From: a phage
Length of the DNA stretch: 40,893 nucleotides
Sequence record: PZ513996.1
Direction: 5' to 3' (one strand)
The notes under the pieces are model-generated. The model was given only the letters and a program-made list of their open reading frames with translations. It ran no database searches and had not been told where the DNA came from. This document shows, piece after piece, positions 31,753 through 32,880 of this stretch. Positions within the stretch are counted from its first letter, which is position 1; every line of letters starts with the position of its first letter. Made by a program: the position numbers and the translations under genes.

Positions 31753-32307
31753 ATGAGCATAAGCAACAAGGTTAAGGCTGCGCTGGCAGGGACTTCCCTG
31801 CTGGGCGCCAGCATCGCTATGGTAATACAGCATAACGAAGGCCTCTCCCTTAAAGCATACAAAGACTCAGCTGGCGTACCTACCATCTGCTATGGTGAGA
31901 CTAAGGGCGTTAGGATGGGTGATACAGCCACGCTGACGCAGTGTAAGCAACAACTGATAGAATCAGCTGGTGAGCATGCTAAGTCTCTTGACGGGCTTCC
32001 TATGTCGCTTACGGACGTACAGATTCTCGGTGCTTTGGACATGACCTATAACATCGGCATCTCAGGTTTTAAGAACAGTACCACGAAGCAAAAGCTAATG
32101 CAAGGCGATACTGCAGGTGCAGCTAAAGCCGTGCTCAGCTGGCGCTACATCACCCGTAACGGGGTTAAGTACGACTGCAGTACGTTGGTAAAGGTTAAGC
32201 CTAATAAGGTGTGCTGGGGCCTCTGGGAGCGCCGTCAGTGGGAAGCTAAAGCTATCGGCAATGAATTCAAATCAGTGCAAGCAGCACTCGCTGCTATGCC
32301 TAAGTAA
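31753..32307 (+). CDS. SAR endolysin, T4-lysozyme-like (GH24) muramidase
   Basis: 184 aa; weakly hydrophobic Gly/Ala/Ser-rich N-terminal signal-anchor KAALAGTSLLGASIAMVI, then NEGLSLKAYKDSAGVPTICYGET catalytic E-D-T region. Confidence 0.8.
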   Translation: MSISNKVKAALAGTSLLGASIAMVIQHNEGLSLKAYKDSAGVPTICYGETKGVRMGDTATLTQCKQQLIESAGEHAKSLDGLPMSLTDVQILGALDMTYNIGISGFKNSTTKQKLMQGDTAGAAKAVLSWRYITRNGVKYDCSTLVKVKPNKVCWGLWERRQWEAKAIGNEFKSVQAALAAMPK

Positions 32308-32311
32308 ATGG

Positions 32312-32479
32312 ATGGCAGACATAATGTCTTGGAACTGGGGGACAATCTCCTTCATAGTCGGTACGGTTGTAGCTGTACTGACCTTTGCATGGAACGCATA
32401 CTACAAACACAAAGAGTACAAGCTCAAGGAGCGAGCATTAGAGAAGGGCCTTGAATGCGGGCTAAGGTCGCTGGGTTAG
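32312..32479 (+). CDS. putative holin (single transmembrane), in a different frame from all other genes
   Basis: 55 aa in frame 2: MADIMSWNWGTISFIVGTVVAVLTFAWNAYYKHKEYKLKERALEKG; the frame-1 ORF over the same DNA (32308..32454) is not protein-like; 3' end depends on junction context. Confidence 0.45.
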   Translation: MADIMSWNWGTISFIVGTVVAVLTFAWNAYYKHKEYKLKERALEKGLECGLRSLG

Positions 32480-32880
32480 TCCTCGCTACGGCTCTTACAG
32501 GGTGTTTGGTAGGCTGCTCAGCGACCTCTGCATTGACAGATCTTATTGGCTCTAAGCCAGACCTGTCCGTGCAAGCTGGCGCAGAGAATACGAAACAAAC
32601 TGTAGGCCTTAATGGCAAGTCCGACTCCAGCACGGACAATGAAACATCAATTAAAGATTCTAACGTAGGCACGCTGGATACTTCTACCAAGAAGCAGTCC
32701 AGTTCAGTTACTACTGGAACCATTAACACGGAGCGAGTACAGGTTGTTAACAACGATGGTACTAGCATAATTCTAGCAGGACTGGCAGGTGCAGCGGTTC
32801 CAATCGCAATCCTCATCATCGTCCTGTTGTTCCGCAAACTCGGAAGAACTAAGGACGAGAGCGATGAGTCTACCAATTAA
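32455..32880 (+). CDS. unimolecular spanin (u-spanin, T1 gp11-like)
   Basis: 141 aa; lipoprotein signal with lipobox LTGC, Ser/Thr-rich middle, C-terminal transmembrane helix ILAGLAGAAVPIAILIIVLLF. Confidence 0.7.
   Translation: MRAKVAGLVLATALTGCLVGCSATSALTDLIGSKPDLSVQAGAENTKQTVGLNGKSDSSTDNETSIKDSNVGTLDTSTKKQSSSVTTGTINTERVQVVNNDGTSIILAGLAGAAVPIAILIIVLLFRKLGRTKDESDESTN

Follow-up and report, generated by a model that had tools for sequence, protein, structure and literature searches.

The segment 31753–32880 of the phage DNA analysed in this study, a stretch of 40893 bases that we call the window, carries three abutting plus-strand open reading frames (ORFs), namely 31753–32307 (184 aa), 32308–32454 (48 aa), and 32455–32880 (141 aa), and the locus raises the question of which lysis system these ORFs represent and whether they stand in the arrangement of a phage genome. 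A first-pass annotation had proposed a lysis module in which a signal-anchor-release (SAR) lysozyme of the GH24 type is combined with a single-chain u-spanin instead of an Rz/Rz1 pair, and had derived from it a triggering by a pinholin. The endolysin and spanin ORFs are indeed located where this module was placed, but its layout is artificial and its gene order is reversed. We consider it highly probable (about 0.9) that the ORFs are lysis genes of a KP34-like phage identical to those of Escherichia phage vB_EcoP_P64441, that they would act by the mechanism proposed below, and that the window itself is an artificial construct.

By walking from base 1, with each ORF beginning at ATG, GTG, or TTG and finishing at a stop codon, positions 1–40893 were found to be tiled by exactly 59 abutting ORFs with zero intergenic bases and zero overlaps. 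A megablast search found the record of vB_EcoP_P64441 (PQ847473.1; Autoscriptoviridae, Slopekvirinae), which matched the window at 99.9% identity in several pieces. When the whole window was mapped onto PQ847473.1, all pieces were placed at ~100% identity, in the sense orientation, and in ascending coordinates of the record; all but one of the genes of PQ847473.1 are on the minus strand, so that the genes follow one another in the window opposite to the way in which they are transcribed. The GenBank records of the phages P64441, PAS7, and F19, as well as one run assembly (ERR477274), likewise show an order opposite to that of the window. In the window, furthermore, TerL precedes TerS and begins at an internal ATG (588 aa versus 607–608), the tail-fibre block is displaced to the start, and no ribosome-binding or promoter sequence is left. 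The junction between hyp244 and the endolysin is at 31752/31753. The window is thus an artificial string of 59 predicted ORFs, joined in reversed gene order and with no intergenic DNA, and the order of endolysin and then spanin is accordingly unnatural; as laid out here, the lysis module is neither a functional nor a natural arrangement. The window is hence unreliable for gene order, adjacency, overlaps, intergenic or regulatory signals, and operon structure, and overlapping genes such as that of the holin have been lost from it or swapped for wrong-frame ORFs.

The natural arrangement was compared in four genomes, namely P64441, PAS7, the Logan assembly of ERR477274, and Klebsiella phage F19, all of which agree on the order of tail fibre, TerS, TerL, hyp60, spanin, holin, and endolysin. 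The exact sequence of the window spanin was not on record in public assemblies, and a relative with 96% identity gave the natural contig. In the natural cassette, hyp60 and the spanin overlap by 1 nt (TGATG), the spanin and the holin by 17 nt, and the holin and the endolysin by 23 nt; these start/stop overlaps suggest translational coupling. In the P64441 record (XXQ42884–XXQ42887), where the lysis genes are annotated as endolysin, holin, and putative spanin, those of the endolysin, the spanin, and hyp60 are 100% nucleotide-identical to their counterparts in the window. In the record, spanin, holin, and endolysin follow in this order, overlap by 17 and 23 nt, and include a holin of the full 82 aa, whereas the window presents them reversed and abutted, with a wrong-frame fragment in place of the holin. 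The hyp60 ORF (32881–33063, plus strand) encodes a conserved 60-aa protein assigned by profile match to phrog_7375, a family with no assigned function. In natural genomes, hyp60 immediately precedes the spanin, the start codon of which overlaps the hyp60 stop, and we regard it as a neighbour of the lysis genes only. Beyond the spanin, a six-frame lipobox scan of the natural cassette found no embedded or overlapping lipoprotein ORF. Because no other lipobox ORF occurs in any frame, the cassette has no Rz/Rz1-type pair, as had been proposed, and the same scan led us to reject a spanin of two components whose o-spanin would be embedded or overlapped. When the four cassette proteins were scanned against NCBIfam, only sub-threshold matches to lysozyme families were obtained, with none for the spanin, the holin, or hyp60. 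The lysis genes are those of an E. coli podophage of Slopekvirinae (KP34-like, T7 supergroup) and are identical to those of vB_EcoP_P64441.

The endolysin (31753–32307, plus strand; 184 aa) is identical to XXQ42884.1 of vB_EcoP_P64441, and its gene is 100% identical to positions 34212–33658 of PQ847473.1. The protein scores 85 bits with Pfam PF00959 (Phage_lysozyme), for which the cut-off is 22.3, and matches the endolysin family phrog_7 with an E value of 1.4e-40. The catalytic motif E29-x8-D38-x5-T44 (codons 29–44; 31837–31884, plus strand) was found by a regular expression and corresponds in the alignments to the catalytic region of both 3hde and 7m5i. Upstream of this motif, residues 7–25 (VKAALAGTSLLGASIAMVI; 31771–31827, plus strand) form a weakly hydrophobic anchor with a mean Kyte–Doolittle value of 1.72 over 19 residues, and we assign it as a putative SAR domain from its hydropathy and its alignment with R21. 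Gly, Ala, Ser, and Thr make up 59% of residues 9–25, the basic residues K6 and K8 are at or just before the N-terminal end of the anchor, and the catalytic Glu29 is 4 residues past the hydrophobic stretch. In a PDB search, residues 4–134 were aligned with full-length P21 lysozyme R (3hde) at an E value of 1.3e-13, the SAR domain included, and the protein was also aligned with E. coli RrrD (4zpu), again including the N-terminus. The endolysin is 59% identical to that of F19, and endolysins of the KP34 group, including F19, have been described as SAR endolysins (Eriksson et al. 2015, PMC4411677). SAR endolysins of the R21 type have a catalytic domain like that of T4 lysozyme (GH24) with an E-x8-D/C-x5-T triad, behind a weakly hydrophobic N-terminal TMD that is rich in Gly, Ala, Ser, and Thr and preceded by basic residues. 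The call of a SAR-type GH24 lysozyme in the first-pass annotation is therefore supported by the PF00959 match, the E-D-T motif, the SAR-like anchor, and the homology with R21 that extends through the anchor. Disulfide caging of the P1 Lyz type was rejected, as the anchor is free of Cys and Asp rather than Cys occupies the second catalytic position, the middle one of the triad. Any regulation of this endolysin would therefore be of the R21 refolding type.

Between the endolysin and spanin ORFs, a remnant of the holin gene is present that had escaped the first-pass annotation. The 48-codon ORF at 32308–32454 (plus strand) is, judging from the boundaries of the pieces, a spurious one in a wrong frame of the holin-gene DNA (PQ847473.1, 34364–34218); the natural holin gene overlaps both of its neighbours and has been swapped in the window for this non-overlapping ORF. 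Translation of the natural gene and alignment locate the true-frame holin fragment at 32309–32455 (plus strand), where it covers W26–E74 of the 82 aa. Lacking the first 25 and the last 8 residues of the natural protein, the fragment keeps only the strongly hydrophobic transmembrane domain (TMD; residues 35–53) and a part of the charged C-terminus, and it is sub-threshold for the Pfam families of the P21-S (24.8 bits versus 26) and HP1 holins. Nonetheless, a frame overlapping the middle ORF (32324–32479) matches the holin family phrog_20 with an E value of 9.2e-15. The natural holin, as translated from P64441 locus 4596–4844, is a protein of 82 aa (MSLPINGETITRVGTNVSVATMGGGWMADIMSWNWGTISFIVGTVVAVLTFAWNAYYKHKEYKLKERALEKGLEYYEHKQQG), and in full length it matches PF04971 (P21 holin S) over residues 14–66 with 30.8 bits, where the gathering score is 26. 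It is also aligned end to end with S21. Pinholins of the P21 S family have two TMDs, the first of them a releasable SAR-like segment, and form heptameric holes of roughly 2 nm that do not let endolysin through. A pinholin, which had been anticipated from the SAR endolysin, is thus the probable identity of the holin of the natural genome, a label drawn from a modest Pfam score together with the association with a SAR endolysin.

The spanin (32455–32880, plus strand; 141 aa) is identical to XXQ42886.1, which is annotated as “putative spanin”. No Pfam family was matched, but phrog_1804 (“Rz-like spanin”) was hit with an E value of 2.5e-39, and tblastn found homologues in 1090 phage records, many of which are annotated as U-spanin or Rz-like spanin. 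The protein shares 36% identity with T1 gp11 over 124 aa (E value of 3e-22) and 64% identity with F19 gp48 over 138 aa (E value of 2e-62). The T1 gp11 family, in which F19, KP34, NTUH-K2044-K1-1, and phiKDA1 are listed among 28 members (Kongari et al. 2018, PMC6139136), is delimited by a minimum identity of 40% to a member across 40% or more of the length; in our comparison on the whole protein, the spanin falls within the family through F19, a listed member (64%), while its identity to T1 gp11 itself (36%) is just under 40%. It is composed of an MRAK n-region, a hydrophobic core, two lipoboxes, a periplasmic region rich in Ser, Thr, and Asn, and a C-terminal transmembrane helix (codons 105–126, IILAGLAGAAVPIAILIIVLLF; 32767–32832, plus strand; Kyte–Doolittle value of 2.81) that is followed by a charged tail, RKLGRTKDESDESTN. 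All aligned homologues share the signal, a lipobox Cys, and the TMD at the C-terminus, and the combination of lipobox and TMD is hence not a matter of chance. An AlphaFold2 model from a 34-sequence alignment had a mean pLDDT of 50.8 and only two terminal helices, one of them at residues 114–132, with no secondary structure in residues 21–113; the periplasmic domain of the T1 gp11 family has been described as a short helix followed by at least four β strands (Kongari et al. 2018, PMC6139136). The homology, the lipobox, and the C-terminal TMD support the 141-aa lipoprotein as a putative single-chain u-spanin of the T1 gp11 family, in agreement with the first-pass annotation. Both elements that could be checked by prediction, a lipoprotein signal (PS51257 at Cys17) and a transmembrane segment (residues 105–126), are present.

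The lipobox given for this protein, LTGC, requires a qualification. The signal peptide (codons 1–21; 32455–32517, plus strand) has tandem lipoboxes, namely LTGC at Cys17 and LVGC at Cys21. The LTGC exists as described and conforms to the PROSITE PS51257 rule at Cys17, but it is LVGC with Cys21 that is homologous to the lipobox of T1: Cys21 is aligned with the cysteine of LSGC in T1 and with that of the single LTGC in most relatives, where it precedes an invariant SATSAL. The tandem arises from a 4-residue insertion giving LTGC-L[V/A/S]GC, which was found in 7 of the 120 closest clusters (the window phage and 6 others). The upstream context of Cys17, meanwhile, is that of the single functional site in the 137-aa relatives. 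No Cys occurs beyond residue 30 in any of the 120 spanin homologues, and none of the 58 catalogued u-spanins has a periplasmic cysteine (Kongari et al. 2018, PMC6139136). That Lgt and signal peptidase II use Cys17, so that the mature spanin would keep a free Cys21 at 4 residues from the acylated N-terminus, appears to us rather doubtful. If Cys21 is used, the insertion would merely lengthen the signal peptide, and the invariant mature N-terminus CSATSAL would be preserved with no periplasmic cysteine.

Several parts of this reading could be explained otherwise. The N-terminus of the endolysin, in which a positive charge and a hydrophobic core are followed by the Ser21-x-Ala23 pattern (S21-I-A23) in accord with the −3/−1 rule of small residues, might be taken as an ordinary cleavable Sec signal peptide, making the protein a soluble periplasmic enzyme rather than a membrane-tethered one. 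We find this quite improbable, however, because the stretch is rich in Gly, Ala, Ser, and Thr and is aligned with the SAR domain of R21, because Glu29 comes only 4 residues later, as in SAR endolysins with the anchor folded into the enzyme, and because the S-x-A pattern is not kept in F19; a freely secreted active muramidase, moreover, would lyse the cells prematurely. A more serious alternative, though still an unlikely one, is that the holin is a canonical holin of class III, with one TMD and large holes, rather than a pinholin, in which case the endolysin would still be exported by Sec and be activated by any depolarisation. Indeed, residues 35–53 (Kyte–Doolittle value of 1.75), which we take as a clear second TMD, are the single strongly hydrophobic segment of the protein, and the first segment has a value of only ~1.0, contains Asp, and is 7 residues shorter than TMD1 of S21. 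The KP34 holin has been predicted to be of class III with one TMD only (Eriksson et al. 2015, PMC4411677), and the T1 holin gp13, with local similarity to the holin here, is annotated as a single-TMD protein. These points are set against the score of the full-length protein above the curated threshold of PF04971, with a match spanning both segments, against a partner SAR endolysin that needs no large holes, and against the curation of the KP34 and F19 cassettes as pinholin plus SAR endolysin (Kongari et al. 2018, PMC6139136); we thus prefer the pinholin.

As for the 141-aa lipoprotein, its role as a spanin is putative and assigned from sequence, and some sources automatically name its homologues “outer membrane lipoprotein SlyB”; it might then be a phage lipoprotein of a different kind, such as a factor for superinfection exclusion or receptor blocking of the T5 Llp or Cor sort. 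This is very improbable in view of its homology to T1 gp11, which complements the λ Rz/Rz1 defect (PMC6139136), an experiment that concerns T1 gp11 only. The C-terminal TMD, furthermore, would give the protein the dual-membrane topology that defines u-spanins, its site directly upstream of the holin and the endolysin is conserved in the four natural genomes, and the cassette has no second spanin candidate. We therefore retain the u-spanin. Least tenable of all, with a chance close to nil, is the notion that the window is an authentic, uninterrupted piece of phage DNA whose lysis genes truly follow the order of endolysin, small ORF, spanin, and TerL. Only the window itself speaks for it. Natural DNA was rejected on the mapping to PQ847473.1 and on the tiling by 59 ORFs: the tiling leaves no intergenic base and no overlap, and every piece is 100% identical to PQ847473.1 and yet the gene order is reversed. 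The opposite order with overlapping genes is shared by the four natural genomes, and TerL ahead of TerS as well as the lack of ribosome-binding and promoter sequences is equally at odds with natural DNA. The artificial concatenation is hence kept as the origin of the window, which was presumably made by listing predicted ORFs by ascending coordinate from a reverse-complement record.

With the gene identities, motifs, homologies, and natural gene order established above, the dynamic steps of lysis would proceed by analogy with the named families. The endolysin would be exported by Sec and held inactive by its weakly hydrophobic SAR domain at the periplasmic face of the inner membrane, while the 82-aa holin of the P21-S family would build up in the inner membrane and depolarise it at the trigger time, most likely via small pinholes. 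Upon depolarisation, the SAR domain would exit the bilayer, and the muramidase with E29, D38, and T44 would refold and degrade the murein. Until then, the u-spanin would bridge the periplasm through the murein mesh, with its N-terminal Cys lipid-anchored in the outer membrane and its C-terminal helix in the inner membrane; the location in the outer membrane is predicted from residue +2, which is Leu or Ser but not Asp. Once the murein is gone, the u-spanin would be freed and disrupt the outer membrane, probably by fusing both membranes.

Among known systems, the closest after P64441 are KP34, F19, and SU503 (Kp34likevirus/Drulisvirus), which share, behind TerL and a 60-aa ORF, the order of u-spanin, holin of ~83 aa, and SAR endolysin (PMC4411677). 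In fact, the Kp34likevirus genus was proposed with this order of u-spanin, holin, and SAR endolysin as one of its defining characters (Eriksson et al. 2015, PMC4411677). The phage here differs from this group in its host, E. coli, in an endolysin shortened by 15 residues within a C-terminal loop, and in the spanin with the 4-residue insertion that creates the second lipobox. T1, equipped with the holin gp13, the endolysin gp12, and the u-spanin gp11, has a homologous spanin of the same topology, a lipobox plus a C-terminal TMD, and a homologous endolysin (E value of 2e-12 for gp12), but it is a siphovirus (Drexlerviridae) with the order of holin, endolysin, and spanin and with a single lipobox, LSGC. 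As for phage 21, the alignment of the endolysin with R21 extends over both the SAR and the catalytic domains, and the endolysin shares the type of E-D-T triad, without a catalytic or caging Cys in its anchor. The S21 of phage 21 is represented here by the natural holin that passes PF04971, although the first segment of the latter is shorter and less hydrophobic than TMD1 of S21, and phage 21 differs in its two-component Rz/Rz1 spanin. phiKMV, likewise a podophage of Autographivirales, follows the same logic of a pinholin and a SAR endolysin (gp45) encoded after the terminase genes (PMC4411677), but with a two-component spanin and the order of holin, endolysin, and Rz/Rz1. All but two spanins of the T1 gp11 family occur together with a pinholin and a SAR endolysin (Kongari et al. 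2018, PMC6139136).

In conclusion, the type of the cassette had already been published in 2015 and 2018 and the genes had already been annotated in GenBank, although a literature search with the phage name P64441 found no paper on its lysis genes; the finding is thus known and ordinary. Its main value is methodological, in that a reversed concatenate of ORFs was unmasked. The biological weight is small, given that this is one more lysis cassette of the KP34/T1 type, and the tandem lipobox of the spanin is the sole mildly novel point, of interest to specialists. Rz1 forms a disulfide-linked homodimer. If it is Cys17 that is used, Cys21 would be a periplasmic cysteine, making this the first such u-spanin and its subclade an exception, and Cys21 might then form a disulfide-linked homodimer at the outer membrane in an Rz1-like manner.

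When mapped to PQ847473.1 (Escherichia phage vB_EcoP_P64441), the window was ~100% identical to this record throughout 1-40893, with the gene order reversed. The whole stretch was, furthermore, tiled by 59 plus-strand ORFs, each running from start codon to stop codon and joined head-to-tail with neither intergenic bases nor overlaps. In terms of its make-up, the window is a concatenate of predicted CDSs and not a genome. The sole break in the ascending record order was the block at the window start (1-1827; record 31562-33648), which is composed of the tail-fibre gene and two small ORFs; the natural place of these genes is between the endolysin and a 244-aa protein. 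Also, the large terminase subunit (33064-34830) was located upstream of the small subunit (34831-35130), opposite to the natural order, and starts at an internal ATG to give 588 aa, where PQ847473.1 encodes 607 aa and L006, a natural phage contig from run ERR477274, encodes 608 aa. Among the ORFs, we noticed one of 40 codons with a GTG start (22441-22563), for which the natural-genome strand is opposite to that of every other piece; it maps to an unannotated gap (record 21457-21581) and is probably a spurious gene call.

A 125-bp stretch was present in two identical copies (3086-3210 and 38383-38507), and this repeat corresponds to an overlap between the two ends that was left untrimmed when the GenBank record was circularised (positions 1-125 equal 42836-42960). 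The gene of the internal virion protein/lytic transglycosylase is cut by this overlap into two ORFs (837 aa and 461 aa). In L006, the place expected for this gene, directly upstream of the tail fibre, is taken by one 1241-aa gene. Repetition of another kind was seen in two paralogous pentapeptide-repeat proteins (21670-22251 and 28015-28551), the DNA of which is internally repetitive with ~82-89% identity in many registers upon self-mapping of the window.

As for the lysis genes, the u-spanin has a tandem lipobox, LTGC-LVGC (32455-32517), which results from a 4-residue insertion; most relatives have a single LTGC. Among the 120 closest spanin protein clusters, 7 carried such a tandem, with the variants LAGC-LAGC, LTGC-LAGC, and LTGC-LSGC. 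The adjacent 60-aa protein (32881-33063; phrog_7375, function not assigned) contains no hydrophobic segment. In natural relatives, its gene is invariably placed between those of the large terminase subunit and the spanin, and the two reading frames meet in TGATG, which holds both the stop of this gene and the start of the spanin; translation of the protein may be coupled to that of the lysis cassette.

The 1082-aa ORF at 35131-38379 is identical to the protein annotated in PQ847473.1 as endo-N-acetylneuraminidase (endosialidase), and the presence of this enzyme suggests that the phage targets polysialic-acid (K1-type) capsules.
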